Shown in pieces: positions 5,762 to 33,440 of a stretch of 64,000 nt of DNA. A model generated the notes under the pieces. That model searched no databases and was not told the origin of the DNA. It worked only from the letters and a program-made list of their open reading frames with translations. How positions within the stretch are numbered: position 1 is the stretch's first letter; each line of letters starts with the position of its first letter. A program made the translations under genes and the position numbers. The stretch comes from Candidatus Liberimonas magnetica (GTDB lineage Bacteria; Elusimicrobiota; Endomicrobiia; Endomicrobiales; JAFGIL01): assembly GCA_020523885.1 (NCBI GenBank), contig JAJAPY010000019.1:586-64585 (forward strand), written 5' to 3'.

Positions 5762-5790
5762 AATAAGTAAAGCAAGTAAAGCCAGGCACG
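5762..5790 (+). repeat. shared module M3 (aataagtaaagcaagtaaagcc...)
   Basis: The first 22 nt are identical, and about 27 of 29 overall, to the reverse complement of 32625-32654. A degenerate third copy sits near 31202-31224. Confidence 0.6.
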
Positions 5791-5925
5791 TAAATCCGTA
5801 AATAGAGTTAGTGTAGTTAGAGAAGCCTGACGTGGAAATCAAGCAATGTTTATAAAAATTATTATTATCCTAGCAGTAAACCTATTTTCTATATTTATAC
5901 CTTCAAATAAAAAACTAAATCACTT

Positions 5926-5970
5926 AATTCGAGGGACACAATACATAATTCTGAATAATATTCCAGCAAG
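5926..5970 (+). repeat. 45-bp direct repeat, copy 1 (left flank of Fic cassette)
   Basis: aattcgagggacaCaatacataattctGaataaTattccagcaag matches 7125-7169 at 42 of 45 positions. Confidence 0.85.
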
Positions 5971-6049
5971 TAGAAGGGGAGTTAGGTAATAAGGTATTTG
6001 GAAAAAATGGGAAATGTTTTCAATGGTTACGAAATCGTAAGGAGGTAAA

Positions 6050-7084
6050 ATGAATTCCTTAAAGAACGATAAAATTAAGTTGCCTCTGGGGTCTGTGTGG
6101 CTGATGAATTCCGTTGCCGAGTACAAGGGTAAGCAGGAGCTGTATGATAAACAATCACCGCAGGTTTTGAAATCATTGCTGGAAATGGCACTTATTCAAA
6201 GTGCGGAATCGTCCAACCGTATTGAAGGAATAACTGTTGAAAAGAACCGCCTGAAATCTTTGGTTCTTGGCCACAGCAAGCCTCGGGACCGCTCGGAAAC
6301 AGAGGTTGCCGGGTACAGGAATGCTCTTAACTTGATTCACAAAAAGCATGATAGCCTGCGAATAACACCTGAAACGATACAGGAATTGCACCGGCTCAGC
6401 CATGCCAATGCATAGGATGCAGGGAAATGGAAAGAAAGAGATAATGATATTATTCGCAAACATTCAGACGGCAGAATGGAAGTCATTTTTAAGCCGGTGA
6501 GCGCCGCAAAAACTCCGGAAATGATGGAGCAATTATGCCGTGCGTATGAAAATAGCATAGACCAACTTCGCTATCCCGATATGTATGCCATAGCCTGCCT
6601 GGTTCTTGATTTTTTAAGTATTCATCCGTTTCGGGACGGCAACGGCAGAGTATCACGGCTTTTGACATTGCTTGTGTTGTATCAGCATGGGTATAAAGTC
6701 GGAAAATATATAAGCATTGAACGGATAATAGAACAATCCAAAGAAACATATTATGAAGCTCTTAATAAGAGTTCTAAAAACTGGCATGAGGCAAAACACG
6801 ATATATTCCCCTGGTTTAATTATTTTCTGGGAACTATATTGTCCGCGTATAAGGAATTTGAAGAGCGTGCCGGCAAAATAAAAGCCGCTAAAGGGGCGAA
6901 AACAGGTATTATTGTTAAGGCTGTTGAAAGCCAGCATGGAGAATTTTCTATATCCGACATCGAGAGCGAAAGCCCGGGCGTCAGCCGGATCATGATAAAG
7001 AAAGTCCTGCATCAGTTAAGCAAAGAAAAGAAAATTAAATCCCTTGGAAAGGGACAAGCAGCCAAATGGAAGAGAATGGTATAA
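6050..7084 (+). pseudogene. Fic/DOC-family AMP transferase interrupted by one in-frame TAG
   Basis: ORFs 6050-6415 and 6476-7084 are in the same frame, separated only by TAG at 6413-6415. HPFRDGNGRVSR Fic motif lies downstream, SNRIEG inhibitory-helix motif upstream. Coding sense continues across the stop (DAGKWKERDNDII). Confidence 0.75.
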
Positions 7085-7124
7085 CAGTAGTGTCATTGGT
7101 ATAATGAATGGTATATTATAAGTG

Positions 7125-7169
7125 AATTCGAGGGACAGAATACATAATTCTAAATAAAATTCCAGCAAG
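7125..7169 (+). repeat. 45-bp direct repeat, copy 2 (right flank of Fic cassette)
   Basis: aattcgagggacaGaatacataattctAaataaAattccagcaag, 42 of 45 identical to 5926-5970. Confidence 0.85.
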
Positions 7170-7200
7170 AAAACACGCCTTGTTAAATGAACTAAAAATT

Positions 7201-7566
7201 ATGAATGAATATCCAAAAAAATCAGGATAAAATTGAAAGAACTTGCAGGGTTATCTTAGTCAAAGAGAACTTGATGCAGGGTTGAAATTGTTACATGAAA
7301 AATTTAATGATTGGGAGAAGGGAAAAATTGATTGTTTTGAATTAAATGAATATATACATAAATTCCATAATAGTGTATCACGTGAAATCTGGAAAAAGTA
7401 TAACCAGCCTAAAACTGGTAATTGGGGACATACAACGTTGTTTGATAATACGATATTCAAAAGTATTATATGCCATATTCAATATTGTATTTGGAAAATG
7501 GAACGGGGGGGGAAGACAGTTAAAAAGAAGAAGCAGCCTCTGCGTATACAAATAAGAAGGGTTTAA
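7201..7566 (+). pseudogene. decayed XRE-family HTH gene fused in frame to repeat-derived sequence
   Basis: Frame A gives GYLSQRELDAGLKLLHEKFNDWEKGK, with XRE HTH spacing (LSQxEL-13 aa-WExGK). Helix 1 (IRIKLKELAG) is in another frame after an A7 tract, and ATG 7201 is followed by two in-frame stops. The 3' half overlaps repeat module M2. Confidence 0.4.
7435..7469 (+). repeat. shared module M2, copy 1
   Basis: acgttgtttgataatacgatattCaaaagTattat is identical to 31155-31189 at 33 of 35 positions. Confidence 0.75.
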
Positions 7567-7571
7567 AAGAA

Positions 7572-8210
7572 ATGAATAAAGGAATATTTATCACGGCAAC
7601 CGATACTGAGGTGGGGAAGACTTACATTTCCTGCCTGCTTGCACAGGAGCTTGTAAAAGGGAAATGTAAAGTCGTAGGAATGAAACCTGTTTCTGCGGGG
7701 TCAAGAGATGACGCAAAAAAGCTTATTAAGGCTTCCGGTGTTAAAGAAAAGATAGAAACAGTAAATCCGCTGTTTTTTAAGTACCCGCTTGCCCCGTATG
7801 CCTCGGCGCTTATTGAGAATAGGAAAATAGACCTGTCTTTGGTCTGGAAAAACTATAAAGAACTTTCAACAAAATATGAGTTTATGATAGTTGAAGGTAT
7901 TGGCGGTTTAATGGTGCCGGTCAAAAAGGATTATTATGTGCTTGATCTGATAAAGGGTTTTAAGCTTCCGGTACTTATAGTTGCAAGGCCGGGCCTTGGG
8001 ACTATCAATCATGTTCTTCTGACCCTAGAGGCACTAAAGAAAGCAGGTGTTAAGGTTTTAGGTATAGTAATTAATGACAAAAAAAGACACAGTCTTTCTG
8101 AAAAAACAAATCCAAAAACATTAAAATCTTTGACCGGGCTTCCTGTCCTTGAAGTCCCGCATAATAAAAAAATAGATTTAAAAAGGAACAAATGGCTGAC
8201 AGGGCAATAA
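7572..8210 (+). CDS. bioD: dethiobiotin synthetase
   Basis: N-terminal TDTEVGKT P-loop, VEGIGGLMVP, about 212 aa; overlaps the bioA start. Confidence 0.85.
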   Translation: MNKGIFITATDTEVGKTYISCLLAQELVKGKCKVVGMKPVSAGSRDDAKKLIKASGVKEKIETVNPLFFKYPLAPYASALIENRKIDLSLVWKNYKELSTKYEFMIVEGIGGLMVPVKKDYYVLDLIKGFKLPVLIVARPGLGTINHVLLTLEALKKAGVKVLGIVINDKKRHSLSEKTNPKTLKSLTGLPVLEVPHNKKIDLKRNKWLTGQ

Positions 8211-9643: not shown

Positions 9644-9685
9644 TGTAGAATGAATACGTAATATTAATATTTTAAGGAGTGAGAA

Positions 9686-11074
9686 ATGGAAACAAGGGTA
9701 AGGATAGATTTCACGAATTGTTTGAAAGAATCAGTCGGAGAACCGGGGTTGTCGTTAGAAGAGATTAAAGTTATGCAGCCAAAAATTACCAGCGCTTTTA
9801 CTGCTATAAATGAAATGAAAAGTCAGGGAAAACTCGGGTTTATGGAACTTCCCTATAAAGAGGGTGAAGCAAAAACCATAAAAGCCCTGGCTAAGAAGCT
9901 TTCTCCTAAATTTGAGAACTTTGTAGTTATAGGCATAGGGGGCTCGGCGCTCGGCAATATCGCCGTCCAACAGGCGCTCCGGCACCCTCAGTGGAACCTG
10001 CTCGGTAAAAAAGAGAGGAAAGGTTTCCTGAAGCTTTTTGTTACAGATAATGTGGACCCTGATTTTATCGGCGGGATAATAGATGTAATTGATTTTAAAA
10101 AGACATTGTTCAATATAATCTCCAAATCAGGAAGTACAGCGGAATGCCTCGCAAATTATTTCATATTAAAAAAGATATTGCAGAAAAAAGCAGGCAAAAA
10201 ATATAACGAGCATATAATCGTTACGACAGACGAGAAAAAAGGGTATTTGAGGGAAACCGTTGAAAAAGAAAAGCTTTTAAGTTTTGTTGTCCCTTCGAAC
10301 GTCGGAGGAAGGTTCTCGGTATTGTCTGCCGTGGGTCTTTTATCAGCGGCCTTTACCGGGATAGATATAGAGAAACTGCTCAGCGGTGCAAAAGAAATGG
10401 ATGCTGTATGTTCAAGCGGCAATATATTTGAGAACCCGGCGGCTATGTATGCGACTATCCAGTATCTTTTCTATTGGGCTAAAAGGCCGATGTCGGTCAT
10501 GATGCCGTATTCAAATGCTATGTACGGTTTTGCGGACTGGTACAGGCAGCTTTGGGCGGAAAGCCTCGGGAAAAAACTTGACAAGCGCGGCGATGTTGTA
10601 AATGTCGGGCCAACGCCTATCAAAGCCCTCGGTGCCACGGATCAACATTCACAGGCCCAGCTTTATATGGAAGGTCCTGCTGATAAGATAATAAATTTTG
10701 TTTCTGTAGAAAACTTCAACAAAACTTTAAAGATACCGCCTTATGATAACCATTATCTGGCGGGCCGCACTTTAAACGAGCTGTTAAAATCGGAAGAAGA
10801 AGCGACGAGGCTTGCGTTAACAAAGATGGGAAGGCCTAACCTCACGATCAACCTGCCGAAAGTCGTCCCTGAAACGGTCGGTCAGTACCTTTATATGCTG
10901 GAACTTGCAACTGCATACACAGGAGAGCTTTTTAATATAAATGCGTTTGACCAGCCCGGAGTGGAACTGGGGAAACAATTGACTTATGCGTTGATGGGCA
11001 GGGCCGGTTATGAAGATAAGATGAAGGATATCCAGGAACAAAGAGATAAAATAACACAAAAATACATAATATAA
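9686..11074 (+). CDS. pgi: glucose-6-phosphate isomerase (short bacterial/archaeal type)
   Basis: IGIGGSALG, ISKSGSTAE, VGGRFSVLSAVGL and DQHSQAQL motifs; 462 aa. Confidence 0.85.
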   Translation: METRVRIDFTNCLKESVGEPGLSLEEIKVMQPKITSAFTAINEMKSQGKLGFMELPYKEGEAKTIKALAKKLSPKFENFVVIGIGGSALGNIAVQQALRHPQWNLLGKKERKGFLKLFVTDNVDPDFIGGIIDVIDFKKTLFNIISKSGSTAECLANYFILKKILQKKAGKKYNEHIIVTTDEKKGYLRETVEKEKLLSFVVPSNVGGRFSVLSAVGLLSAAFTGIDIEKLLSGAKEMDAVCSSGNIFENPAAMYATIQYLFYWAKRPMSVMMPYSNAMYGFADWYRQLWAESLGKKLDKRGDVVNVGPTPIKALGATDQHSQAQLYMEGPADKIINFVSVENFNKTLKIPPYDNHYLAGRTLNELLKSEEEATRLALTKMGRPNLTINLPKVVPETVGQYLYMLELATAYTGELFNINAFDQPGVELGKQLTYALMGRAGYEDKMKDIQEQRDKITQKYII

Positions 11075-11152
11075 CAATACAATGACTAAAGCCCAATGAA
11101 AATATATTTTATGATTTAGGATTTATTCTGTTAGTCATTATGAGGTTAAGTA

Positions 11153-12238: not shown

Positions 12239-12365
12239 ATATTGAGCCCCACGGGCAGGCCCGTGGTACCAAAATCCCTACCACCTACGGTGGGGCGAAA
12301 TCCCGCTTGATTTACGGATAAACCTGTAGTTTTTAAGCGGCGGGATAAATAAATTTACAATTAAA

Positions 12366-12399
12366 AATAGGCTTTTGTATATAACTAAGCCTATTTTTT
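12366..12399 (+). terminator. rho-independent terminator after proB
   Basis: 9-bp stem aataggctt/aagcctatt, 12-nt loop, followed by a T6 run. Confidence 0.65.
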
Positions 12400-12421
12400 G
12401 ATATATAAGGATATAAGATAA

Positions 12422-13969
12422 ATGAAAAAAAGATTGCTGCTAGTCTTTTTTGGATTATTCTTTAGTTTGATATTGCTTGAAGCAGGCCTGCGCCTGGGCG
12501 GTTTTATATATAATTCCAGGCAGGAGATAAGGAACAGAGAAGAGCTGAAGAAGAAGAAACAGGTTTACAGAATATTGTGTTTAGGTGAATCAACAACGCA
12601 GGGAGAATATCCGAAATATCTTGAAGAAGTATTAAATAACAGGGATATAGGGATAAGGTTCAGTGTGATAGACAAGGGCAGGCAAGCGACTACAACGACG
12701 TTTATATTAGCAAAGCTTGAAGAAGATCTTGATAAATATAAACCGGATATGGTCATAACCATGATTGGAGTAAATGATGACCGGACAGATATGGTATACG
12801 AATATGAAAATGGTGGAATAAAAAGCCTTATTAAATCAATTAAAATATATAAACTAGCAAGGTTGCTAGAACAGCATATAAAGAGAAGGATAGAAGAATT
12901 AAGTACGATTAAAGGAAACATAAAGCAGAATAGAGTAGAAGAAATCAATGAATTAAGCAGTAAGAAACTATTAGAAGCAAAAGGAAAAGAAAGTGGAAAC
13001 AAGATAGTCGGAACCCATGCGGATAATGAAGTAAAGTATGCGCAAGAATGGAGTTTTTGCAGTGAAAAAGAAGAGCCGATACTTAAGAAAACAATAGAAA
13101 GTGATCCCAATAACAAAAATAAATATATAGAATTAGTTAAATTTTATATAGAATCAGGAAAGTATGGAAAAGCTATGAGTGTATCTAAAAAGCTGATAGC
13201 TTTAAATCCAATAGATAAATTGGGGTATTTTTATTTAATGAGAATAAAACAATATGTAAAAGAAGAATCAAAGTATAGAAAAGCAATACAGATAAACCCA
13301 AAAGATCAAGAAGCGAATTTAAAGTTGGGTCATTTTTATGAAAGAATAGGTAGTTCTAATGAGGCAGAGAAAATTTATGAAAAAGCAATAAAATCAGGTG
13401 TAAATAACGAATCAATATATTCTCGTTTAGCTAATTGTTATAGGCGTGAAAATAAGTATGAAGAAGCAATGGCTATGTATAAGAAAGCAATAGAGCTAAA
13501 TCCTGAAAAAATAATGTTATTTTATCTGCTTGAAGAGATTTACAGGAAGCAAGGAAAAGGAAAAGAAGCAGAAGAAATCATGAACAAAATAGTTGATAAA
13601 GGGAAAGGGCCATTAAGAATAAAGTATTTGAGGCCTAATGAGGGGTATGAATCAGAATATTTTGGAAGGCCTGTAATATATAACTACAAAAAGTTAAGTG
13701 GAGTATTAAAAAAGAGGGGAATAAGATATATATGCATGCAATACCCTCTAAGGAAGATAGGAATATTGAGAAATATATTTTATAAAGATAAAGATATAGT
13801 ATTCGTTGACAATGAGAAGATATTCACGGATGTCGTTCAGAAAGAAGGGTATGATGAATATTTTAGAGATATATTTGCAGGAGATTTCGGCCATTGTACG
13901 ATAAAGGGCAATAAACTTTTAGCCAAGAACATAGCAGATACGATAATAAAAGAAGTATTTCATAAATAA
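12422..13969 (+). CDS. membrane-anchored SGNH/GDSL-like hydrolase split by an internal TPR array (paralog 1 of 4)
   Basis: N-terminal TM helix, CLGESTTQ (block I Ser), MIGVNDD (block III), about 5 degenerate TPRs, then C-terminal YICMQYP...VFVDNE...GDFGHCTIKGNKLLA (block V His). Confidence 0.65.
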   Translation: MKKRLLLVFFGLFFSLILLEAGLRLGGFIYNSRQEIRNREELKKKKQVYRILCLGESTTQGEYPKYLEEVLNNRDIGIRFSVIDKGRQATTTTFILAKLEEDLDKYKPDMVITMIGVNDDRTDMVYEYENGGIKSLIKSIKIYKLARLLEQHIKRRIEELSTIKGNIKQNRVEEINELSSKKLLEAKGKESGNKIVGTHADNEVKYAQEWSFCSEKEEPILKKTIESDPNNKNKYIELVKFYIESGKYGKAMSVSKKLIALNPIDKLGYFYLMRIKQYVKEESKYRKAIQINPKDQEANLKLGHFYERIGSSNEAEKIYEKAIKSGVNNESIYSRLANCYRRENKYEEAMAMYKKAIELNPEKIMLFYLLEEIYRKQGKGKEAEEIMNKIVDKGKGPLRIKYLRPNEGYESEYFGRPVIYNYKKLSGVLKKRGIRYICMQYPLRKIGILRNIFYKDKDIVFVDNEKIFTDVVQKEGYDEYFRDIFAGDFGHCTIKGNKLLAKNIADTIIKEVFHK

Positions 13970-13972
13970 GCC

Positions 13973-15499: not shown

Positions 15500-15503
15500 G
15501 AAA

Positions 15504-17543: not shown

Positions 17544-17548
17544 AAGAC

Positions 17549-22676: not shown

Positions 22677-23062
22677 CGAAAACCCTAAAAAAGCTTTATT
22701 TTTGGCCTCCCGTTATTCTTTGGTGTGGGCTCATATTTTATCTTTCAAGTATCCCGAATCTAAAGACCGAGTTTGGTTTTGCAGACCTGATCTTGCGAAA
22801 AATGGCCCATATAACGGAATACGGAGTTCTTTTTTTGCTGACTTTAAGGGCACTTAAGAACAGCGAGCTGAGCTGGCAGGAAAAGTCGATGTATTTAAGC
22901 GCGGTCATATTTTCTGTGCTTTATGCGGCTTCGGATGAATATCACCAGTCGTTCGTCCCTACCAGGGGCCCTTCGGCTATAGACGTAGGCATTGACAGTA
23001 TAGGGGTATTTGCAGGTTATCTTGTTGCTAAACACATTCCTAAAAAGGGGAAAATAATATAA
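22658..23062 (+). CDS. VanZ-like membrane protein
   Basis: [29 protein letters not shown] is the VanZ family signature; 4 hydrophobic segments. An alternative start at 22673 overlaps the upstream stop. Confidence 0.7.
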
Positions 23063-23139
23063 ATTACAATAACCAATTTCCAAATCCCAAAAAATATCAA
23101 ATAACCAATAATCAAATATCGGGCAAGCCTTTTTGTTTA

Positions 23140-24509: not shown

Positions 24510-24524
24510 TTATCCAAATTAGGT

Positions 24525-24551
24525 GTCATACCCGCGGAAGCGGGTATCCAG
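24525..24551. repeat. GTCAT-type hairpin
   Basis: gtcATACCCGCggaaGCGGGTATccag: 8-bp stem, 4-nt loop, 16 nt after the stop of the upstream gene. Confidence 0.6.
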
Positions 24552-24583
24552 AAATTAAAGCTTTCGTCAAACTGGGTTCTTGA

Positions 24584-27529
24584 ATGGTTAAAAAAACAAT
24601 AGAAAAAGATAATATAAAAGAGATAGTTGAAGGCTTAAACAACGCACAAAAAGAAGCTGTGGAGCATTCTCAAGGGCCACTTCTTATAATCGCAGGCGCA
24701 GGTACCGGAAAAACCCGGGTCATAACAAGGAAAATAGCATATTTAATATCTACTAAAAAGGCAAAACCCTCCGAGATACTTGCCTTAACTTTTACGGACA
24801 AAGCAGCGACCGAGATGGAAGAACGGGTTGACCTCTTAGTGCCTTACGGGTTCAATGACGTATGGATATCCACGTTCCACGCGTTCGGGGACAGGGTCTT
24901 AAGAGAAAATGCCATAGAAATAGGCCTTTCACCGGATTTTACCATATTAAACCAGCAGGAAGCAGCGGTATTTTTCAAAGACAACCTGTTTTCTTTTGAG
25001 ATGAATTATTTCAGGCCTCTTGGAAATCCGAGCCAATATATAAATGCGCTCTTAACCGCGTTCAGTCGAGCAAAAGATGAAAATATCGGCCCAAAAGAAT
25101 ACCTGTCTTATGCAAAGAACAAAATAGCAGGCGCCAATAGCCCGGAAGAAAAAGAAGAAGCCCAGAAAAACATGGAAGTTGCCCTGGCTTATGAAAAGTA
25201 TGAAGAGTTAAAAAAGAAAAATAATTATCTTGATTTTGGCGACCAGGTGATTTTAGCGTTTAACCTTCTTAAAGAGCACCCGTCCTTGTTAAAGAAATAC
25301 CAGAATAAGTTCAAATATATCCTTGTGGACGAGTTCCAGGACACGAACTATACCCAGTTTGAGCTTGTAAAGCTTCTTGCCAAAGAACATAGAAATATAA
25401 CCGTAGTAGGAGACGACGACCAGTCTATTTATAAATTCCGCGGCGCCTGCCTTTCAAATATCCTGGGATTTAATAAAGCCTACAAAGATGCTAAACAAGT
25501 GGTTTTACGCCAGAATTACCGCTCAACTCAAGGGATATTGAACTCAGCATACAAACTTATCACCCAGAACAACCCCGAACGGCTTGAGGTAAAAAATAAG
25601 ATAAATAAAGAGCTTGTTTCAACCCGGCTTGAAGGCCCGGCTGTCGAGCATCTATATTTTGACACTCTTTCCACGGAAGCTGATGAAACGGCAAAAAGGA
25701 TAAAGGAAAAAGTTGAAAGCGGGAAATTTTCCTGGAAGGACTTTGCTATCCTTGTCCGGTCTAACGCTTCTGCAGAACCTTTTTTAAAATCTTTGAACTA
25801 TTTAAATATCCCGTGGAAATTTTCCGGCCAGGCAGGTTTATATAAACGCGAAGAGATAAGGCTTCTTCTTTCTTTTTTACGGGTAATGGCAAACCCGAAC
25901 GACTCTTTGAGCCTGCACTATTTTTCTTCAAGCGATCTCTATGATTTTGACCCTATCGATATCTCTACAGTTAACCACACGGCTTCGTATTACGGCCGCT
26001 CTATGATGGACGTGCTTAGGAATTTAGGACAGTACAAAGAGTTGTCGAGCCTAGCGGATAAAACAAAAAGCGGGATAAGTAAACTGTTGAATGACCTGGA
26101 AGAATATTACAAGATAGCTCAAAGTTCAAGAACAGGCGAGCTGTTATACAAGTTCCTTAAAAGAACTAAGATCCTTGAGCGGTTGTACAACTCAACATCT
26201 TATCTTGAAGTCGAGCAGGCGCAGAACATCGCAAAATTCTTTAAGATAATCGAGCGTTTTGGCAACATTGTATCCTATGACAGGGTCAATGCTTTTGTCG
26301 ACTATATAGATTCACTTTTATTCGTGGGCGACGACCCTACGGTAGATGAGCCGGACTTTGACCTTGATGCTGTAAACGTGCTTACCATTCATAAGGCAAA
26401 GGGCTTAGAATTTTCCGTGGTATTTATGGTGTCTCTTGTAGAAGACAGGTTCCCCTCAAGGAATAAAAGAGATTTGATAGAGCTTCCGGATGAGCTGATA
26501 AAGGATATCCTGCCGCAGGGAGATTTTCATCTCCAGGAAGAAAGGCGGCTTTTTTATGTAGGGATGACGCGCTCAAAAGACGAGCTCTACCTGACAAGCG
26601 CCCGGGATTACGGCGGAAAGCGCGCAAAAAAGGTTTCCCGTTTTGTCCTGGAAGCACTTGATAAGCCGAAAGCTGATGAAGAGGTTTTTAAATCAAGCAT
26701 CAAAGAACAGCTGGAACGGTTTGCTCCGGTAGAGCGAAAAATAGATTTTTCAAGCATTTTACCAAAAGACCAGGGGACACTGAAACTTTCCCCCTATGCC
26801 ATAGATGATTATCTTACCTGTCCGTTAAAATATAAGTATGTCCATGTCCTGCGGGTGCCTATTTTAAGGCACCATTTGCTTATTTACGGCGAAGTTATCC
26901 ATAAGGTTTTAAAGGAGTATTACAAGCAAAGAAAAGAAAACAAAAAATTCACTAAAGACGACCTCGTAGAGCTTTACAAAAAGTTCTGGTCGTCAGCCGG
27001 GTTTTTGTCCAGGGAACACGAAGAAGAACGTTTCAGGAGCGGGCAAGAAATGCTTGTAAATTATTTTAACGAGGAACAAAAAAGGGACTTCGTCCCTTTA
27101 TCCGTAGAGGAAGACTTTAAATTCATGCTTGATGATTCCGTTAAGGTTCTCGGCCGTTGGGACAGGCTTGATGAAAGGCTTGAGGAAGGAAATAAAATAA
27201 GGGTCATTGTAGATTTTAAGACAACCGCCAGGATAAAAGACCAGAAATCAGCAGATAAAGAGATAAAACAGAGCGGCCAGCTCTTAATCTACGCGCTGGG
27301 CCATAAAATGAAGTACGGAAAACTCCCTGATTATGTCGAACTCCATTTCTTAGAGCCAAACATTATTTCAAAACTAAAACCAGAAGATAAGGATATCGAT
27401 GAATTGAAAGAAAAGATAAAAACCGTAGCCTGCGGTATAAAAGCCCAGAACTTTACAGCCGAACCATCCTATATGGCATGCCAGTACTGCGCCTATTCCA
27501 ATATTTGCCCAAAACAGGAAAATAATTAA
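24584..27529 (+). CDS. UvrD/PcrA-type SF1 helicase fused to a C-terminal RecB/Cas4-like PD-(D/E)XK nuclease with Fe-S cysteines
   Basis: AGAGTGKT, VDEFQDTN, QNYRST and YVGMTRSK are helicase motifs. The C-terminus has GRWDRLD, VIVDFKT and QLLIYALG, plus Cys in YLTCPLKY and CQYCAYSNIC (C...Cx2Cx5C). Confidence 0.8.
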   Translation: MVKKTIEKDNIKEIVEGLNNAQKEAVEHSQGPLLIIAGAGTGKTRVITRKIAYLISTKKAKPSEILALTFTDKAATEMEERVDLLVPYGFNDVWISTFHAFGDRVLRENAIEIGLSPDFTILNQQEAAVFFKDNLFSFEMNYFRPLGNPSQYINALLTAFSRAKDENIGPKEYLSYAKNKIAGANSPEEKEEAQKNMEVALAYEKYEELKKKNNYLDFGDQVILAFNLLKEHPSLLKKYQNKFKYILVDEFQDTNYTQFELVKLLAKEHRNITVVGDDDQSIYKFRGACLSNILGFNKAYKDAKQVVLRQNYRSTQGILNSAYKLITQNNPERLEVKNKINKELVSTRLEGPAVEHLYFDTLSTEADETAKRIKEKVESGKFSWKDFAILVRSNASAEPFLKSLNYLNIPWKFSGQAGLYKREEIRLLLSFLRVMANPNDSLSLHYFSSSDLYDFDPIDISTVNHTASYYGRSMMDVLRNLGQYKELSSLADKTKSGISKLLNDLEEYYKIAQSSRTGELLYKFLKRTKILERLYNSTSYLEVEQAQNIAKFFKIIERFGNIVSYDRVNAFVDYIDSLLFVGDDPTVDEPDFDLDAVNVLTIHKAKGLEFSVVFMVSLVEDRFPSRNKRDLIELPDELIKDILPQGDFHLQEERRLFYVGMTRSKDELYLTSARDYGGKRAKKVSRFVLEALDKPKADEEVFKSSIKEQLERFAPVERKIDFSSILPKDQGTLKLSPYAIDDYLTCPLKYKYVHVLRVPILRHHLLIYGEVIHKVLKEYYKQRKENKKFTKDDLVELYKKFWSSAGFLSREHEEERFRSGQEMLVNYFNEEQKRDFVPLSVEEDFKFMLDDSVKVLGRWDRLDERLEEGNKIRVIVDFKTTARIKDQKSADKEIKQSGQLLIYALGHKMKYGKLPDYVELHFLEPNIISKLKPEDKDIDELKEKIKTVACGIKAQNFTAEPSYMACQYCAYSNICPKQENN

Positions 27530-27538
27530 TTCAGGTCA

Positions 27539-27575
27539 CATTGAAAATTCGGTGGCAAAGACCGAATTTTCAATG
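27539..27575 (+). terminator. terminator-like hairpin after the helicase gene (no T run)
   Basis: Perfect 15-bp stem cattgaaaattcggt/accgaattttcaatg with a 7-nt loop. A second 8-bp hairpin (atcgttca/tgaacgat) follows. Confidence 0.45.
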
Positions 27576-27683
27576 TAAAACTGTTCATTGTAATGTTCTT
27601 ATCGTTCATTATATTGAACGATGGGATTTTGAAGATTCTCCACTTTATTATTGCTTTTTTTTGCACAACAATTTAGGCAACGC

Positions 27684-27712
27684 TTGACAATCCAATTTCA
27701 AAGAATTACAAT
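27684..27712 (+). promoter_or_regulatory. sigma70-like promoter
   Basis: TTGACA (27684-27689), 17-bp spacer, TACAAT (27707-27712); 58 nt upstream of the ATG at 27770. Confidence 0.55.
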
Positions 27713-27769
27713 CTAACCATACTTGCCAAATATACTCCACACTGACTTTATTCAGCCAATTATTGAATA

Positions 27770-28267
27770 ATGAATGACAAACAAAAGTTAAAACTTATTC
27801 TCATAACAGGTCTTGTTTGCACCGCTCTTGGCGGATGGCTCCTGCATTTACGAATTCACACCATTCAAAGCAATCCATCAAACTATCTTCCATTTTTATC
27901 GGGCATATTCAGCATAATAATTCTGCCGTTAATGTTCTATTTCAGGCCAACAGTTACCTATGCCTATATCCTAAACGGAATGACCGTAATAATAGGCACT
28001 ATAACAATGGCGCATTTTTCGATAGCCAACCTGCCGCCGGAAATAACCTTAGGTACTATTATTTTAAGAACAACATTCGCAGACATAATGCTTCTTTTTA
28101 CAAAACTTTTTATAGGAAAAGCCATATTCGACCTCAACACTTATAACCCCGAAGGAAGTTCCACCATAAAAGGCAGGTTTTTCAGGTATCCGAATATGGG
28201 TTTCTGGTGGGTGCATTTGTTTGCCATGTCCGTCGTTTACACTCTCGGACATGTTTTGTGGAGGTAA
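27770..28267 (+). CDS. polytopic membrane protein, unknown function
   Basis: 165 aa with about 5 hydrophobic helices. The C-terminal helix is FFRYPNMGFWWVHLFAMSVVYTLGHVLWR. Confidence 0.55.
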   Translation: MNDKQKLKLILITGLVCTALGGWLLHLRIHTIQSNPSNYLPFLSGIFSIIILPLMFYFRPTVTYAYILNGMTVIIGTITMAHFSIANLPPEITLGTIILRTTFADIMLLFTKLFIGKAIFDLNTYNPEGSSTIKGRFFRYPNMGFWWVHLFAMSVVYTLGHVLWR

Positions 28268-28270
28268 TAA

Positions 28271-28366
28271 ATGTTCAGGTTCATGCTTTTTAAACCCGGC
28301 TGGTGGATACTGCATATACTTATGATAATTTTCATGTTCTGGCTCGGGCATGTAATAAGGTTTTAA
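28271..28366 (+). CDS. 31-aa single-helix membrane peptide (not in the ORF track)
   Basis: MFRFMLFKPGWWILHILMIIFMFWLGHVIRF starts 1 nt after the TAATAA of the upstream gene. It repeats that gene's last helix (FRx..GWW.H...LGHV). Confidence 0.5.
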   Translation: MFRFMLFKPGWWILHILMIIFMFWLGHVIRF

Positions 28367-28443
28367 CATATAAGTAAGGTACTTGCTTCCGAGATTACTA
28401 AGGAAAGATAGTATACTTAGTGAAGCTTGATGATATGGCTGAC

Positions 28444-28459
28444 ACCATATGGTATAAAT
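28444..28459. promoter_or_regulatory. palindrome ACCATATGGT fused to TATAAAT upstream of the STAND gene
   Basis: accatatggtataaat equals the right arm of the MNT operator (accataaacatggtataaat) minus 4 nt. TGGTATAAA resembles an extended -10 element. It ends 24 nt before the STAND ATG at 28483. Confidence 0.45.
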
Positions 28460-28482
28460 TATTTGTTTGAAAGTGAGGGAAA

Positions 28483-31140
28483 ATGAAGATAATTGAACTA
28501 ATGAAACAAAGAATTCAAGATGAAGGTAATGATTCAGATTTTACAAGATTCTATAATAATATGTTATATGGTGAAATGGTAATAAAATGGATTGTTTGTG
28601 GTATTGCGGCAGGAATTGAAGATGATGTAGATAGAAATCAATATCAGATTTACTACAATCTAATACGCTCAAATGCAATCGGTGACTGGGTAACTAATCT
28701 AGAGAAGATATTGCAACAGCTGCCTTCTCAATATCTAATTGAAGAGGTAAAAATAAAAGAAAGGAAGGAATTAACAGAAAAAGTTGGAAGTGGAAAATGG
28801 CAGTATGAAATGGCTTTGTCTATATTTCAGTGTTTGAATTCCTTAGATGAAAGCACGGACAATTTGCCAACTAAAGTAGATGCATTAGAGTGGTTTAGAA
28901 GATTTGTAACATTAAGAAATAAATTTAGGGGTCATGGGGCACAGAGAGGGGCTAAATGTGCTGAGTTGTGTGAAATGTTAGAAAACTCTATTGATATTCT
29001 AGTAAACAACTTCATATTGTTTAAACGACCATGCGTATTTTTATACAGAAATCTATCAAAAAAATATAGGGTGTCTCAAATTTCAGAAAGTAATGATTAC
29101 TTTGAGAGCTTAAAAACTGAAGAAGGAAAAAAATGTAATTATGAAGATGGTATTTTTATAGCTTTTGGTACAGATATAAATATTATCAAATTAGTAGAAT
29201 CCGATGCTGATCTAAGTGATTTCTATTTTTCAAATGGGCAATATAATGACAAAAATTGTGATTATGAGATGCTTTCTTATATAACAGGAAATAAAATAAG
29301 AAATATCGATAATTTTTATACTGTACCTATTGAAACGCTCCCAAAAAGTGAAACATCAAGTATGGGTGAGTTAGATGTATTTCATAATAATGTGTTTTCA
29401 AATATTCCAACACAAAGACCTGGCTATATCAAGCGTTTAGAGTTGGAAAATCAACTAAAAGAGCAATTATTATTAACAGAAAGACATCCAATAATAACGT
29501 TACAAGGTAAGGGAGGGATTGGAAAGACAACTCTTGCATTACAAGTGCTACACGAGATTGCGCAAAGCCCTTATATACCTTACAAGATGATAATATGGCT
29601 GAGTGCAAGAGATATTGATTTGACTTCAGAAGGACCAAAAGCTGTTAAGCCTGATGTGATTTCAAAAAAGCAATTTTCAAAAGAATATGCACTTTTAGTT
29701 TTGGGAAAGAATAAAGCTAAAGGGATGAATTATGAGGAATATTTTTCTTCACAATTAAGCAAGGGGGCATTGGGCCCAACTCTTTTTATATTTGACAATT
29801 TTGAAACAGTAGAAAATCCATTTGATGTGTTTAAATATCTTGATTCTTTTATTAGACTACCTAATAAAATATTGATTACTACTAGAATAAGAGATTTTAA
29901 AGCAGATTATCCTTTAATAGTGTCAGGAATGACAAAGAATGAAAGCTTCCAGTTAATTGAAAATATAAGTAATGAAATTGGATTAAGTCAATTATTGCAC
30001 GAAGAATATAAGCTTGAGTTATATAAAGAATCAGGGGGACATCCATATATTATAAAAATACTTTTAGGGGAATGTGCTAAGAAAAAACAATTAGTTAAAC
30101 CAGATATAGTATTACAAGATTTAGACAAGCTATTAGATGCTCTGTTTGAAAGAAGTTATATAAATCTATCAAAAGCTGCCCAAAGAATATTTTTACTTCT
30201 TTGTTCTTGGAAGTCCGCAATACCTGAAATCGCACTGGAGTTAGCGATGTTGTCTGCTAGAGAGAAAATAGATGTTTCAGAAACTCTTAATGAGCTTGTT
30301 AATAGTTCTTTTATTGAAGAAGAAGTTTCAGAAAATGACAATTTTTATTATGCTCCTTTAGCAGCATTAACTTTTGGTAAAAGAAAATTGAAGGTAAGCT
30401 CTTTGAAGGCAATTGTTGAAGTAGATTCAATCTTTCTTCAGAAATTTGGAGTAACGAAGAGCGCTGAAATTAAAAAAGGGATTCTTCCTAAAATCAATAG
30501 ATTTGTTAGAAAAGTGGCTGAAGAAATAAGTAGTGGGACAACTAGTCTGGCTGCGCATAAAAATAATTTTGACTATATTGCTTCAAAAGTGCCCCAAGCT
30601 TGGCTAAGCATCGCAAAATTATATAAAGAACAAGATAATTTAGATAATGCAATTGAAACTACTAGGAAATATCTAGAAAGAGAAGATGGAGAAGAAGGTA
30701 AGCTAAAGGCATGGGAAGAATTAACTAAATTATATGAATTAAAGAAAGATTACAAAAATGAATTGCTAACACTTGTCGAAATATCGCAAAACAGAAAGTT
30801 GCAATTGTATGATTTGTCCAATATTGTAAATAGAATAATTATTTTATGCAAAACGCTAAAGGATTTAGACCGAACCTCAGCTTTTGAGGTAGAGGAAAAG
30901 AAGTTGATGTTAAAAAAAGTTATAACTGTAATAGAGTTAAGAGATGATGAGCTTGATCCTACAGACTGTTCGCGAGTAGCATGGTTATTCTTAAATATTG
31001 GCGATACTAAAAAAGCATTAGATTATGCAAAAAAAGGCTTAGACATCGATAAGGCAAATTATTATTGTAGAAGTCTTATTGAGCGTATTGATAAAGAATA
31101 TAGGGGGCGAACGAGAAAAGGTGACAAAGTTGTAGAGTAG
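28483..31140 (+). CDS. STAND NTPase of NB-ARC/AP-ATPase type with unassigned N-terminal domain and C-terminal helical repeats
   Basis: P-loop GKGGIGKTTLA, Walker B LFIFDNFE, ILITTR, and GGHPYII (GLPL-like). The first 330 aa or so are unassigned. Much more AT-rich than its neighbours (15/60 G+C at 28483-28542 against 27/60 at 26401-26460, hand counts). Confidence 0.8.
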   Translation: MKIIELMKQRIQDEGNDSDFTRFYNNMLYGEMVIKWIVCGIAAGIEDDVDRNQYQIYYNLIRSNAIGDWVTNLEKILQQLPSQYLIEEVKIKERKELTEKVGSGKWQYEMALSIFQCLNSLDESTDNLPTKVDALEWFRRFVTLRNKFRGHGAQRGAKCAELCEMLENSIDILVNNFILFKRPCVFLYRNLSKKYRVSQISESNDYFESLKTEEGKKCNYEDGIFIAFGTDINIIKLVESDADLSDFYFSNGQYNDKNCDYEMLSYITGNKIRNIDNFYTVPIETLPKSETSSMGELDVFHNNVFSNIPTQRPGYIKRLELENQLKEQLLLTERHPIITLQGKGGIGKTTLALQVLHEIAQSPYIPYKMIIWLSARDIDLTSEGPKAVKPDVISKKQFSKEYALLVLGKNKAKGMNYEEYFSSQLSKGALGPTLFIFDNFETVENPFDVFKYLDSFIRLPNKILITTRIRDFKADYPLIVSGMTKNESFQLIENISNEIGLSQLLHEEYKLELYKESGGHPYIIKILLGECAKKKQLVKPDIVLQDLDKLLDALFERSYINLSKAAQRIFLLLCSWKSAIPEIALELAMLSAREKIDVSETLNELVNSSFIEEEVSENDNFYYAPLAALTFGKRKLKVSSLKAIVEVDSIFLQKFGVTKSAEIKKGILPKINRFVRKVAEEISSGTTSLAAHKNNFDYIASKVPQAWLSIAKLYKEQDNLDNAIETTRKYLEREDGEEGKLKAWEELTKLYELKKDYKNELLTLVEISQNRKLQLYDLSNIVNRIIILCKTLKDLDRTSAFEVEEKKLMLKKVITVIELRDDELDPTDCSRVAWLFLNIGDTKKALDYAKKGLDIDKANYYCRSLIERIDKEYRGRTRKGDKVVE

Positions 31141-31154
31141 GGGAACGGAGAGGG

Positions 31155-31189
31155 ACGTTGTTTGATAATACGATATTGAAAAGGATTAT
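31155..31189 (+). repeat. shared module M2, copy 2
   Basis: acgttgtttgataatacgatattGaaaagGattat, 33 of 35 identical to 7435-7469; starts 15 nt after the STAND stop. Confidence 0.75.
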
Positions 31190-31258
31190 GCGTTAAAATC
31201 CAAATAAGTAATGGTGCCAGGCATGACTTATGTGACTTATTGGATGTTCGGTGTCAGG

Positions 31259-31307
31259 CCCTCCTTCGCTAAAGCTACGGAAGGACACAGCTTGCCTAAT
31301 AACTCTT
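31259..31307 (+). repeat. shared module M4 (hairpin followed by GGACACAGCTT..TAATAAYT), copy 1
   Basis: tccttc-gctaaagctacg-gaagga-cacagcttgcctaataactc. Related copies lie at 32957-33000 and 35286-35332. Confidence 0.6.
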
Positions 31308-31352
31308 ACACGGATTCAGTTGATGCTCCACACCCTTTCAGCAATGTGTGAC

Positions 31353-31378
31353 GCCAACATCCACTTCCGCAATGGATG
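31353..31378 (+). repeat. shared module M5 (gccaacatcca..aatggatg hairpin), copy 1
   Basis: gccaacatccaCtTccgCaatggatg, 23 of 26 identical to 33415-33440. Stem is catcca/tggatg. Confidence 0.65.
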
Positions 31379-31578
31379 CCGGCCATCCGACTGTTTGAAT
31401 GCCTGTGCCTGGCTTGACTAAATGAACCAATGAATTACTAGAGATTGCGGCCGTGTCTATAAAAGTCACGATAGTTAGTGCAATTGAAAAAGTAATTTGG
31501 ATTTATTAAAAGGCCTTATCTATCACGACGCGATTTTTATCTGATTGTTAAATTAAGTATCAAGTATTAAAAATATTA

Positions 31579-31607
31579 TTGACATCTTACCATGTTTATG
31601 GTATATT
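31579..31607 (+). promoter_or_regulatory. sigma70-like promoter of the MNT-HEPN operon
   Basis: TTGACA (31579-31584), exact 17-bp spacer, TATATT (31602-31607). Confidence 0.6.
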
Positions 31608-31625
31608 TATACCATAAACATGGTA
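31588..31625. promoter_or_regulatory. perfect 18+2+18 bp palindrome (candidate operator) across the -10 element
   Basis: taccatgtttatggtata tt tataccataaacatggta. Each arm itself contains ACCAT-N4-ATGGT. Confidence 0.65.
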
Positions 31626-31644
31626 TAAATAGGATGTAGGGAAA

Positions 31645-32193
31645 ATGATATTTAATCTTCGTTCTAAAATCACCAGGAAAATACTTAATTTTTTCTTTCT
31701 AAACGATAAATCCAGGGTTTACGTTAATGAAATAGCCCGCCAGATCGAAGAAGAACCAAAGAATGTGTATAGGATATTAATCCGCCTTGAGGACTCAGGA
31801 ATACTAACCAGTGAGTTTTCGGGGCGTGAAAGGTATTTTACGGCAAACTTAAAAAGCAGCCTCTTAAAAGAATATAAAACCATTTTCATGAAAACTTCGG
31901 GTATTGAATCAATGCTAAAAAAAGCAGTAACGAAAAGACCTGAAATAAAAGAAGCTTTTATTTATGGGTCCTATGCAAGCGGGAAATATAAGCCGGGAAG
32001 CGATATTGACCTCTTGCTGGTAGGCAATCACAAAAGCATGGATGCTCAAAAAATGATTTTTGACCTGCAAAAAACGTCAGGCAGTGAGATAAATGTCATT
32101 AATATTACCCCTGAAAACTTTAATAATAAAAAAACGGAAAAGGACCAGTTGATATCTTCTATTTTTTCCGGGAAAGTAATAAAACTATTATGA
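31645..32193 (+). CDS. winged-HTH fused to a minimal nucleotidyltransferase (MNT-type antitoxin-like)
   Basis: N-terminal wHTH-like segment VYVNEIARQIEEEPKNVYRILIRLEDSGIL, then NTase signature GSYASGKYKPGSDIDLLLVG. The stop overlaps the next ATG (ATGA). Confidence 0.7.
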   Translation: MIFNLRSKITRKILNFFFLNDKSRVYVNEIARQIEEEPKNVYRILIRLEDSGILTSEFSGRERYFTANLKSSLLKEYKTIFMKTSGIESMLKKAVTKRPEIKEAFIYGSYASGKYKPGSDIDLLLVGNHKSMDAQKMIFDLQKTSGSEINVINITPENFNNKKTEKDQLISSIFSGKVIKLL

Positions 32194-32576
32194 AATTTGA
32201 CAAAAATCATTTTATTGAGCAGAAATTTACACCTAATGAGCTTGAAAAGATACGGAAATCTGCCAAACGAAACATGGAGTTAGCAGGCTCAAGCAGTGCC
32301 CCTGAAATAATTTTTCATTTCTCATACATGGCTCTTATAAAAATTGGTATTTACTGTATAGCCAAAGAAGGATACAGGGTTAAAAGTCGGCCTGGCCACC
32401 ATGTAAAAATAATTGAAGCTCTTAGCCAAATCTTGGGATCAAAAGATATTTTGATTGCCGGAGATAAAATGCGCAAAGACAGGAATATCGATCTTTATAG
32501 CGGGGATGCCGTAATTGACGTGAAAGAAGCCGAAGAGTATTATGAAATAGTTAAGCAGTTTGTTAATACAATCTAA
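32190..32576 (+). CDS. HEPN-domain protein (toxin-like partner of MNT)
   Basis: 128 aa, predicted helical, MRKDRNIDLYSGD matches my recollection of the HEPN R-N-x-x-x-Y/H region. 4-nt overlap with the NTase gene. Confidence 0.55.
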   Translation: MKFDKNHFIEQKFTPNELEKIRKSAKRNMELAGSSSAPEIIFHFSYMALIKIGIYCIAKEGYRVKSRPGHHVKIIEALSQILGSKDILIAGDKMRKDRNIDLYSGDAVIDVKEAEEYYEIVKQFVNTI

Positions 32577-32624
32577 AGTTGTCGTTACCCGTCTAAAATC
32601 AGTGCGGAAATAGCGGCCTAATTG

Positions 32625-32654
32625 CGTGTCAGGCTTTACTTGCTTTACTTATTC
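32625..32654 (-). repeat. shared module M3, inverted copy
   Basis: The reverse complement gaataagtaaagcaagtaaagcctgacacg matches 5762-5790. Confidence 0.6.
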
Positions 32655-32674
32655 AGGGCTCGAATAGGGAAATT

Positions 32675-32923
32675 ATGACTAAACTTGAAATAAAATATCC
32701 TTGCGAATGGAGTTACACCGTTATCGGTGCGGATGAGGGCTTACTGCGGGGTGCGATAGCCGAAGTCTTTTGCGGCAAGGAACATAGTATGGAGTTTTCA
32801 AAAAAGAGTAAGGCTGGAAAATACATTTCACTCATCACCAAAACAAAAGTAACCGATGAAGATGAGCGGGTTAAGCTATGCAATTTGTTGAGCAAGCATC
32901 CGGCAATAAAAATGGTTTTGTAA
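32675..32923 (+). CDS. DUF493/YbeD-like small protein
   Basis: 82 aa: YPCEWSYTVIG...SKAGKYISLITKTKV...IKMVL fits the YbeD family pattern. Confidence 0.65.
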   Translation: MTKLEIKYPCEWSYTVIGADEGLLRGAIAEVFCGKEHSMEFSKKSKAGKYISLITKTKVTDEDERVKLCNLLSKHPAIKMVL

Positions 32924-32956
32924 ACAAAATATTAAAAGGAATTCGGGGGACACACA

Positions 32957-33000
32957 CCCCTTCTACGCTGAAGCTACGAAGGGCACAGCTTAATAATTTT
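32957..33000 (+). repeat. shared module M4, copy 2
   Basis: cccttc-tacgctgaagctac-gaaggg-cacagcttaataatttt. The stem base pair differs from copy 1 in a compensatory way (t-a becomes c-g). Confidence 0.6.
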
Positions 33001-33035
33001 GAAAACAAGCATTTTAATTCAGGAAAAATAAGGTT

Positions 33036-33413
33036 ATGATAAAAAAGAAAAAATCACCATTGATTGCGGCTTTGCTGTCGGCTTTTGCGTTTCCTGGACT
33101 CGGGCAGGTGTATGCGAAGTGCTATGCCAAAGGCTTGATATTCATCGTTATAACTATGATACTCTTCATTTCCATCGCCGTGCCTCTAATTACAATTGCC
33201 TCATCGTATGCTTCTGAAATGGCAAACTTAGAATCCATGAGCCCATCTAAATTCACCATGCCAAATGATGGCAGGATAAAATGGTTTTCCATTCTTCTGA
33301 CCGTTGCATGGATTATTTCCATAGTTGACGCCTGGTCCTGCGCAAAAAGATTGAACAAGCAAATAAGTATATCAGCTTCAGTTGATGTCCCTCCCCCTCC
33401 CGGCAAGGCATGA
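33036..33413 (+). CDS. small membrane protein, unknown function
   Basis: 125 aa with FPGLGQVY motif, 3 hydrophobic segments and a Pro-rich tail. Confidence 0.5.
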   Translation: MIKKKKSPLIAALLSAFAFPGLGQVYAKCYAKGLIFIVITMILFISIAVPLITIASSYASEMANLESMSPSKFTMPNDGRIKWFSILLTVAWIISIVDAWSCAKRLNKQISISASVDVPPPPGKA

Positions 33414-33414
33414 T

Positions 33415-33440
33415 GCCAACATCCATTCCCGTAATGGATG
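33415..33440 (+). repeat. shared module M5, copy 2
   Basis: gccaacatccaTtCccgTaatggatg starts 2 nt after the TGA of the upstream gene. Confidence 0.65.

Follow-up and report, generated by a model that had tools for sequence, protein, structure and literature searches.

Short intergenic repeats in two accessory islets of an uncultured Elusimicrobia genome: probable dispersed families, one of them flanking a REP-type tyrosine transposase in related genomes

Two accessory islets and their short repeats

We analyzed a stretch of 64,000 nucleotides of Candidatus Liberimonas magnetica (contig JAJAPY010000019.1; here called the window), which is nearly the entire contig of this uncultured Elusimicrobia metagenome-assembled genome (MAG) and has a GC content of 40%. 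Five short sequence modules, M1 to M5, recur in it at two loci, one with a Fic gene and one with genes for a STAND NTPase, an MNT-type nucleotidyltransferase and a DUF493 protein. The original prediction compared this pattern with a cassette array joined by recombination sites or by sites resembling repetitive extragenic palindromic (REP) sequences. Our results indicate that the modules are probably for the most part dispersed short repeats and not cassette recombination sites. One of them, M3, recurs between the genes of related genomes and on two contigs flanks a gene for a REP-associated tyrosine transposase (RAYT).

Locus 1 is an insertion in an operon. It consists of 1.86 kb within the biotin cluster, between bioF (4545-5708) and bioD (7572)/bioA (8192), and contains two pseudogenes, of Fic and of a small open reading frame (ORF) of a family of ~110 amino acids. 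Locus 2 is bounded on one side by a UvrD/PD-(D/E)XK helicase gene (24584-27529) and on the other by motA (33615), and a 504-bp stretch without genes separates its STAND NTPase gene from the MNT nucleotidyltransferase gene. Among the relatives (contigs and loci used for comparison carry L numbers), only L015 was informative for synteny. On this 1.8-kb contig, whose MotA is 81% identical, the 3' end of the orthologous helicase gene is followed directly by GYD and then by motA, and the islet is absent. Since the motA promoter is conserved as well, locus 2 is an islet of ~5.9 kb, and the two loci thus both consist of accessory DNA. In relatives whose MotA is 75% identical, no common context was left. 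Strain variants lacking Fic or the MNT cassette were not found; the other contigs of the organism, Logan contigs L001 and L013 only, are 100% identical. Both of these begin near the features described here, L013 at window position 5728, beside M3a and a hairpin termed module B, and L001 within the MNT-partner gene, at 32237. Assemblies may break at these two starts owing to the repeats or to differences between strains.

The predicted repeat pairs M1, M2, M3 and M5 were all recovered at their positions, and their significance was assessed with blastn-short against the 7.4 kb of intergenic DNA of the window. The M1 copies agree at 42/45 positions (E = 3e-14), and the match extends to 52 nt at 88% identity (5919-5970 and 7118-7169). 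M2 agrees at 33/35 positions (E = 2e-10). The M3 pair is inverted, with 22 identical nucleotides and 29/32 agreeing overall (E = 1e-7), and M5 agrees at 23/26 positions, which by itself is marginal (E = 0.011).

M3 and the transposase gene that it flanks

M3 is more frequent in the window than predicted. In addition to the two copies of the inverted pair (M3a and M3b), a third copy of another subfamily (M3c) and a degenerate copy were identified (Table 1), and the tip of M3 alone occurs at 31250-31259, abutting M4a; this last site had been overlooked as well. M3b and M3c are identical to each other at only 21/29 positions and thus represent different subfamilies. Each has perfect counterparts in other genomes: M3b matches copies in L016, L023, L025, L027 and L030 at 28/28 positions between unrelated flanks, and M3c matches Elusimicrobia RIFOXYA2_FULL_47_53 at 29/29 (L007, 3402-3430) and L029 at 27/27 positions. 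Across the 64 kb about 50 of 51 genes lie on the plus strand, an extreme bias, and so do four of the five M3-type copies.

A degenerate M3 pattern was found among species-representative genomes in RIFOXYA2_FULL_47_53, with three copies in 8 kb, and a more general 27-nt pattern matched 17 metagenome loci; no match was obtained in viral contigs. In total there were 28 matches, including the three in the window, and 21 non-redundant copies lie outside it, on contigs of nine other sample sets (eight JGI metagenome sets and the RIFOXYA2 MAG scaffold). The 27-mer core GTGTCAGGCTTTACTTGCTTTACTTAT is unchanged at about seven places whose flanks are wholly unrelated, and because it recurs between different flanks, the M3 unit can be delimited to ~29 nt with sharp edges. 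All 24 non-redundant copies, those of the window included, are intergenic, and many start 4 to 25 nt past a stop codon. Besides solitary copies there are tandem ones (L007, L025) and one inverted pair (L031). M3 is not palindromic; it shows no self-complementarity and carries no GTAG or CGTC tag. Its two internal 9-mers have a mean identity of 6.7 within copies versus 5.6 between copies, so that covariation is weak. Readings of M1 and M3 as sigma-54 promoters, dif/Xer sites or DnaA boxes were dropped by eye, as neither fits the consensus sequences.

A RAYT-type transposase, suggested as a search target by the original prediction, was indeed found flanked by M3 in related genomes. On two contigs of 2 to 3 kb, L020 and L021, inverted M3 copies flank an ORF of 298 amino acids, with one copy 26 to 27 nt before the start codon and the other overlapping the last 8 nt of the gene. 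The geometry is the same on both (521+/1489- in L020, 625+/1587- in L021), though the two proteins are only 58% identical; M3 dispersal itself is seen across related contigs only. The ORF matches Pfam Y1_Tnp (IS200-like; E = 6e-16), the NCBIfam model NF047646 for REP-associated tyrosine transposases (83.4 and 84.8 bits, cutoff 80) and the E. coli TnpA-REP structure PDB 4er8 (E = 5.5e-4). HUH motifs (HFHLF/HFHLL) and the Y-x3-NP motif (YIHLNP) are present. The C-terminal tail matches Bac_DnaA_C weakly (E = 1.3e-4 and 7.5e-4; 22 and 20 bits, where the gathering score is 31.5).

By these sequence features the M3-flanked enzyme most likely belongs to the class termed TIRYT, also known as TnpA-REP subclass 2.1 (Quentin et al. 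2018, PMC6006769) or RAYT group 1 (Bertels et al. 2017, PMC5581495). TIRYT genes are flanked by long, non-palindromic terminal inverted repeats (TIRs), forming so-called TIRtrons, and TIR families of moderate abundance have been described, whose members stand alone, in dimers or in clusters (Di Nocera et al. 2013, PMC3733652). Subclass 2.1 carries a DnaA_C-like tail (PMC6006769). The M3 system shares with TIRtrons the Y1 HUH transposase of ~300 amino acids, inverted non-palindromic repeats of which one overlaps the 3' end of the gene, and the scattering of the repeat as singles, dimers and clusters. Possible further likenesses are the DnaA_C-like C-terminal helix-turn-helix (HTH) and a tip resembling the motif GGGGWSAS, which has been reported for the majority of TIRs, not all (PMC6006769, PMC3733652). 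It differs in its host phylum, Elusimicrobia, which is not mentioned in the text of Quentin et al. (PMC6006769), in its tip GGTGTCAG, which agrees with the motif at seven of eight positions, and in its two tandem 9-mers. Further differences are that M3 copies are 100% identical across several metagenomes, that M3 joins separate hairpin modules, and that the transposase is known here from related genomes, not from the window.

Companion repeats, cargo genes and other features

Outside this genome, M1 and M4 too are found in the neighborhood of M3. L022/L028 have an identical 19-nt core of M1 at a distance of 107 nt from an M3 copy. In L023, a related M1 copy and an M3 copy lie on opposite sides of an AAA_14/DUF4143 gene, ~1.2 kb apart. 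The M1 head (AATTCGrGGGACAC) also precedes M4b at 32940-32954, which had not been noticed before; in a comparison of M1a with this head, one of 2,000 shuffles scored as well. M1 and M2 were also considered as related sequences, and this was rejected because 371 to 437 of 2,000 shuffles aligned as well, i.e., at chance level.

M4 had been predicted as three copies of a hairpin with a compensatory stem change between the first two. The first two copies are well supported (31/35 with one gap; 0/2,000 shuffles as good), while the third, at 35286-35332, is not (693 to 808 of 2,000) and belongs to a long hairpin between motB and flbD. This hairpin comprises 85 nt (-29 kcal/mol, z = -2.76) with 12-nt outer arms ATATTTTTACGG/CCGTAAAAATAT. 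The supposed compensatory change turned out to be a shift in register of one window copy relative to the other; when four members of the family, taken from three genomes, are compared, double changes do occur, in two of seven consensus pairs. The M4a hairpin matches L016 264-285 (95%) and L025 (92%), 60 to 110 nt from M3 copies. Module B adjoins M3a, and the same composite of M3 followed by B recurs in L016 (twice), L018, L027 and L030, where stem bases differ and covary. Like M4, it is a hairpin without GTAG or CGTC tag. These repeat families thus combine in variable order, in the manner of bacterial interspersed mosaic elements (BIMEs).

A longer version of the M4a hairpin, 77 nt with matching ends (CCTCCTGCGCT...GGAGGACGCAG), lies inside M3 in L018 and L025, exactly between the two 9-mers. 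M3 thus looks like either a preferred landing site or a hairpin-less footprint. The sites concerned are L018 220-320 and 1845-2045 and L025 3870-3996 and 12100-12276. A second hairpin type (CCGCCAAT..ATTGGCGAGG) is nested directly after the tip GGTGTCAGGC.

M5 is part of an ungapped 64-nt match of 78% identity (31315-31378 and 33377-33440; 54/72 over a longer span) that takes in the final 12 codons of the small membrane ORF along with its stop codon. The most plausible reading of M5 is that the 3' end of the membrane gene and its hairpin left a paralogous remnant nearby. M2 is a real repeat that could be genome specific or a relic of shared inserted DNA. Its copies can be translated as TLFDNTI(F/L)K.., and an origin as a coding remnant was considered; the MNT-partner gene matches M2 near its 3' end at 12/15 positions, which is not significant, and this idea was dropped.

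TABLE 1 Positions of repeats, genes and borders in the window
Feature	Position	Strand	Basis or remark
Module B hairpin, TAGATTCCC..loop..GGGAATGAC	5729..5759	-	Adjoins M3a; 21 nt past bioF stop codon
M3a, TIR-type dispersed repeat (cGTGCCTGGC + TTTACTTGC + TTTACTTAT)	5762..5790	-	22-23 nt core identical in L016, L023, L025, L027, L030
M1a (GAATTCsrGGGACACAATACATAATTC...TTCCAGC)	5919..5970	+	Upstream of Fic
Fic pseudogene, islet 1 cargo	6050..7084	+	Pfam Fic_N + Fic; in-frame TAG at 6413-6415
M1b, direct orientation	7118..7169	+	34 nt past Fic stop codon
Pseudogene of ~110-aa family (predicted as XRE remnant)	7191..7415	+	Frameshift near start; truncated at ~nt 7413
M2a, orphan 35-nt repeat	7435..7469	+	Starts ~20 nt past pseudogene truncation point; preceded by GGGGACAT at 7421-7428
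Islet 2	27530..33473	+	165-aa hypothetical gene, STAND NTPase, module cluster, MNT cassette, DUF493, small membrane gene
M2b	31155..31189	+	14 nt past STAND stop codon
M3c, other M3 subfamily (GGTGCCAGGC ATGACTTAT GTGACTTAT)	31213..31241	+	Not in the original prediction
M4a composite: M3 tip GGTGTCAGGC, then short hairpin CCTCCTTCGCTAAAGCTACGGAAGG, then ACACAGCTT..	31250..31307	+	M4 alignment, shuffles
M5a with remnant of membrane-gene 3' end (SVDAPHPFSNV-stop)	31315..31386	+	Paralogous to 33377-33448
Degenerate M3-like copy (GTGCCTGGC TTGACTAAA TGAACCAAT)	31405..31431	+	Not in the original prediction
MNT (winged HTH + nucleotidyltransferase) + 128-aa partner, two-gene cassette	31579..32576	+	Pfam, NCBIfam
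M3b	32625..32653	+	22 nt upstream of DUF493 start codon
M4b composite: M1-type head AATTCGGGGGACACA, then hairpin CCCTTC..GAAGGG, then CACAGCTT	32940..33000	+	Shuffles, hairpin consensus
M5b, last 12 membrane-gene codons + hairpin ACATCCAT..ATGGATGT	33377..33448	+	Fold z = -2.2; last element before motA promoter
motA promoter, TTGACT-N17-TAAAAT	33474..33502	+	Kept upstream of motA in L014 (89% MotA) and L015 (81% MotA); right border of islet 2
Long hairpin between motB and flbD, not M4 family	35260..35344	+	Contains the predicted third M4 copy

Judged by their homologs, the cargo genes have histories of their own. The Fic protein is 75 to 85% identical to hundreds of proteins across phyla, and the TAG codon interrupting its gene is identical in the independent Logan assembly of the organism (L013). 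The unusual conservation of the family (75 to 78% amino acid identity) over Omnitrophota, Chlamydiota and others implies frequent horizontal transfer. The nearest DNA homolog of Fic, in L008, aligns over 6031-7118 only, i.e., between the M1 copies; it is located in an hsdR gene and is free of modules. Likewise, the MNT cassette has a homolog in L009 (71.7% nucleotide identity, aligned over 31578-32548) that is set among other genes and has no modules. As neither homolog carries modules, these are not part of the cassettes. Both homologs are bracketed by direct repeats of host DNA that have diverged: in L008 by 101 nt of the hsdR 5' end (88% identity; 1189-1289 and 2517-2617), in L009 by 45 nt of a promoter-like region (82%; 9816-9860 and 11019-11063). 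This suggests insertion with a long target duplication or Campbell-type integration; the explanation was not extended to M1, since M1 is a dispersed family and not a local target duplication.

The MNT cassette has its own promoter (TTGACA-N17-TATATT) and, overlapping it, a 38-nt palindrome of perfect type (31588-31625; CCATGTTTATGGTATA..), which is probably the autorepression operator of the winged HTH-MNT protein. The promoter and palindrome region (31579-31625; L009 9933-9982) is 95% conserved in a cassette with 70% protein identity. Several details of the original gene calls did not hold. The HEPN label has no support from Pfam or NCBIfam, and the ORF called an XRE remnant (7243-7566) has no Pfam match and is a frameshifted, 3'-truncated member of a ~110-aa family; its best homolog is P0292 (74% identity), and most homologs stop aligning at residue 50 to 60, i.e., before M2. 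The initiation region agggaaa(a/t)tATG, said to be shared by three genes, has a single exact match (DUF493), and the three matches at up to one mismatch compare with 1.75 expected.

The window holds several other intergenic repeats common to distant relatives, which points to small repeats as a general trait of the lineage. Inverted repeats of tandem heptamers (TAGCGTA type) lie between genes at 1428-1517 and 45087-45163; a 31-nt stretch of them is 97% identical after motB in a distant Endomicrobiales MAG (L002, 11515-11545), and L015 has an analogous hairpin of GCTCATA heptamers at ~180-260. They may be a lineage-wide terminator or repeat type. An A/T-rich inverted pair of 57 nt, 23 kb apart and 75% complementary (23055-23111 and 46270-46326), has a 28-nt core that is also found after motB in another metagenome genome (L004-L006, 11606-11633). 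Upstream of bioF, a REPIN-like inverted doublet (GTCATTGyGAG...AAGCAATCT) occupies 4412-4448 and 4466-4497, and its 27-nt core occurs three times in L030 (2324, 5148, 5384). Two hairpin motifs have exact counterparts on M3-bearing contigs, GGGGGCA..TGCCCCCTAAAT (window ~40705-40738) in L027 at 4380 and 4620, and TACCGATGCGGGATCGGTA (window 2665-2683) in L024 at 4438-4456. Within genes, four tandem paralogous GDSL-lipase/TPR genes show a repeat periodicity of 102 nt (12422-19486), and a 1,167-aa NHL-repeat protein (48448-51951) is encoded by at least 16 copies of a 168-nt unit. The Rfam scan of the window returned no match at the gathering score, and a tRNA scan found nothing.

Origin of the repeats and alternative explanations

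The reading that we favor is that M3 acts as the TIR of a TIRtron, i.e., of a single Y1 (HUH) transposase gene of REP-associated type with a DnaA_C-like HTH tail between inverted TIRs. M1 and the M4 hairpin would be further, non-autonomous families that travel with M3 in BIME-like mosaics. A transposase encoded elsewhere in the genome would copy these elements in trans through single-stranded DNA, and copies would survive where insertion is tolerated, which would be the case shortly after stop codons and within accessory DNA that is decaying. Identical patches of 20 to 50 nt would result and could then serve as substrates for later rearrangement. We infer mobilization by the Y1 enzyme, the presence of this enzyme in the genome and the membership of M1 and M4 in the same system from sequence comparison.

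The likeness to REP sequences proposed originally holds for M3 and less firmly for M1 and M4, and does not cover M2 and M5. As in the REP/REPIN-RAYT systems and BIMEs of Proteobacteria, the repeats are short and extragenic, lie mostly just downstream of genes and form mosaic clusters of several motifs. As in REPtrons, the cognate transposase is a single-copy gene between inverted copies, and it passes the NCBI RAYT model. Unlike REP sequences, M3 is no imperfect palindrome and its copy number appears modest; unlike REPINs, it forms no doublet in the window, and one inverted pair was found in L031. Similarities also exist to miniature inverted-repeat transposable elements (Correia/NEMIS, RUP, ERIC), which are non-coding, 30 to 150 nt long, dispersed, sometimes nested and sometimes contribute to ORF ends. 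Solo M3 copies, however, lack inverted termini and a clear target-site duplication, and the enzyme is of the Y1 HUH and not the DDE type.

Several observations weigh against the favored reading. No Y1 transposase is encoded in the window, so that mobilization in trans is presumptive here, and M3, being neither palindromic nor tagged, is not a classical REP, i.e., an imperfect palindrome of 20 to 40 nt ending in a GTAG (or CGTC) tag. The agreement of its tip with GGGGWSAS is incomplete and was given little weight, since exact copies of the motif occur in the window at chance frequency (5 observed versus ~6 expected by estimate). An M1 25-mer was absent from metagenome and viral contigs, and the status of M1 as a family rests on two other genomes. 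M2 was absent both from viral contigs and from the 255 kb of related loci, and M5 had no copy outside the window in the sequences compared, which included the same 255 kb. Moreover, the modules are not evenly spread in the window: among 39 intergenic regions, all copies fall into the two islets, which simple random dispersal would not predict; it fits accumulation where insertions are tolerated. Elsewhere, M3 clusters adjoin accessory genes, namely Fic (twice), a D12 methyltransferase, a TdeIII endonuclease, AAA_14/DUF4143 ATPases (twice) and an IS110 fragment, and also core genes (triose-phosphate isomerase, ComEC, an ABC-F ATPase and a CobW-like GTPase). These loci were fetched because they contain M3 and are a biased sample, so that neither co-occurrence nor gene context amounts to a census.

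The gene context could also be explained by an integron-like or other site-specific cassette array, with the modules as recombination sites of a recombinase encoded elsewhere. Small accessory genes on the same strand (toxin-antitoxin, Fic) do lie between short repeats, as in integrons, with modules at gene boundaries and one repeat overlapping an ORF 3' end. Direct M1 copies bracket Fic, a Bro-N/Fic gene in L016 stands between two identical direct M3 copies, and module clusters separate accessory genes on contig Ga0265297_10001338. Yet the five sequences are not one type of site, as the unrelated M1 and M2 illustrate, and there are neither attC cores or bulged hairpins at the two loci nor IntI/attI in the window. 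Pairs of the form RYYYAAC...GTTRRRY are absent from 5600-7700 and 31000-33700 and number three per strand window-wide, none at a module. The original prediction had also noted that the window encodes no recombinase. This proved correct in a Pfam scan of nearly all long ORFs (~50), which left out three of the four tandem TPR paralogs and four genes annotated otherwise, and in a tblastn search with the Y1 transposase of the related genomes; no integrase or recombinase domain and no transposase match was found. The enzyme linked to M3 is a Y1 HUH transposase and not a tyrosine or serine recombinase, the Fic and MNT homologs lack modules, and M3 adjoins core genes too. A cassette array is thus largely refuted, and we regard it as very improbable.

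A segmental duplication followed by decay has a somewhat better claim, while still being rather doubtful as a general explanation. Here, 31155-31386 would be a collapsed tandem copy of 32555-33448 (partner-gene tail, M3, DUF493, M4, membrane gene, M5) from which the ORFs were deleted, and the copies at the Fic locus would be further relics. The identical order of M3, M4 and M5 in both stretches agrees with this, as does the M5 match, which runs 36 nt into the membrane ORF with the stop codon in register (SVDAPHPFSNV-stop versus SVDVPPPPGKA-stop). However, M3c and M3b belong to different subfamilies, each 100% identical to copies in other genomes, which marks them as independent family members; M4 is present in other genomes as well, the match of M2 to the partner-gene tail is not significant, and the loss of every ORF with all spacers spared is improbable. 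Duplication can hold for M5 at most. Conservation of the modules as cis-regulatory or RNA elements of the host (terminators, protein-binding sites in 3' untranslated regions, promoters) is unlikely, although many M3 copies lie just past stop codons, mostly in the direction of the upstream ORF where this is identifiable, M4, M5b and module B form hairpins, and sequence conservation across genomes is high. It conflicts with the missing Rfam matches, weak fold z-scores (0.18 to -2.2), the lack of a hairpin or T-run in M3, the occurrence of copies in both orientations, in tandem, as inverted pairs and nested, and the position of M3 as inverted repeats around a transposase gene. A secondary host role, as known for REP sequences, may exist.

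Two linked ideas go beyond dispersal, and we consider their joint truth a long shot. Where pairs of repeats on the same strand bracket accessory genes, the Y1 transposase could use them in place of its left and right ends, and the two 9-bp direct repeats of M3 could be what the DnaA_C-like domain of group-1 RAYTs binds. In the study of Quentin et al. (2018, PMC6006769), the genes of the subclass had no REP-like sequences near them, and the target of this domain was left open. Same-strand brackets are seen around Fic in the window (M1), around Bro-N/Fic in L016 (M3) and, with an M1-like copy and M3, around the AAA_14/DUF4143 gene of L023, whose counterpart in L018 is flanked by M3/D module clusters. 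If true, a domesticated RAYT-type enzyme would shuffle defense and toxin genes as single-strand circles, in a cassette system without integrase.

The dispersed-repeat reading, in turn, settles the apparent case of a cassette array without recombinase: the modules would be dispersed repeats, with at least one family tied to a REP-type tyrosine transposase. It adds a clear and well-populated repeat family to the least understood class of RAYTs (group 1/TIRYT), and a 29-nt TIR made of a conserved tip and two 9-mers, identical across several metagenomes, offers a concrete substrate for biochemistry. Finally, the concentration of these repeats near Fic, toxin-antitoxin, restriction-modification and STAND genes, as seen in a sample selected for M3, would be useful for marking the borders of defense islets in fragmented MAGs.

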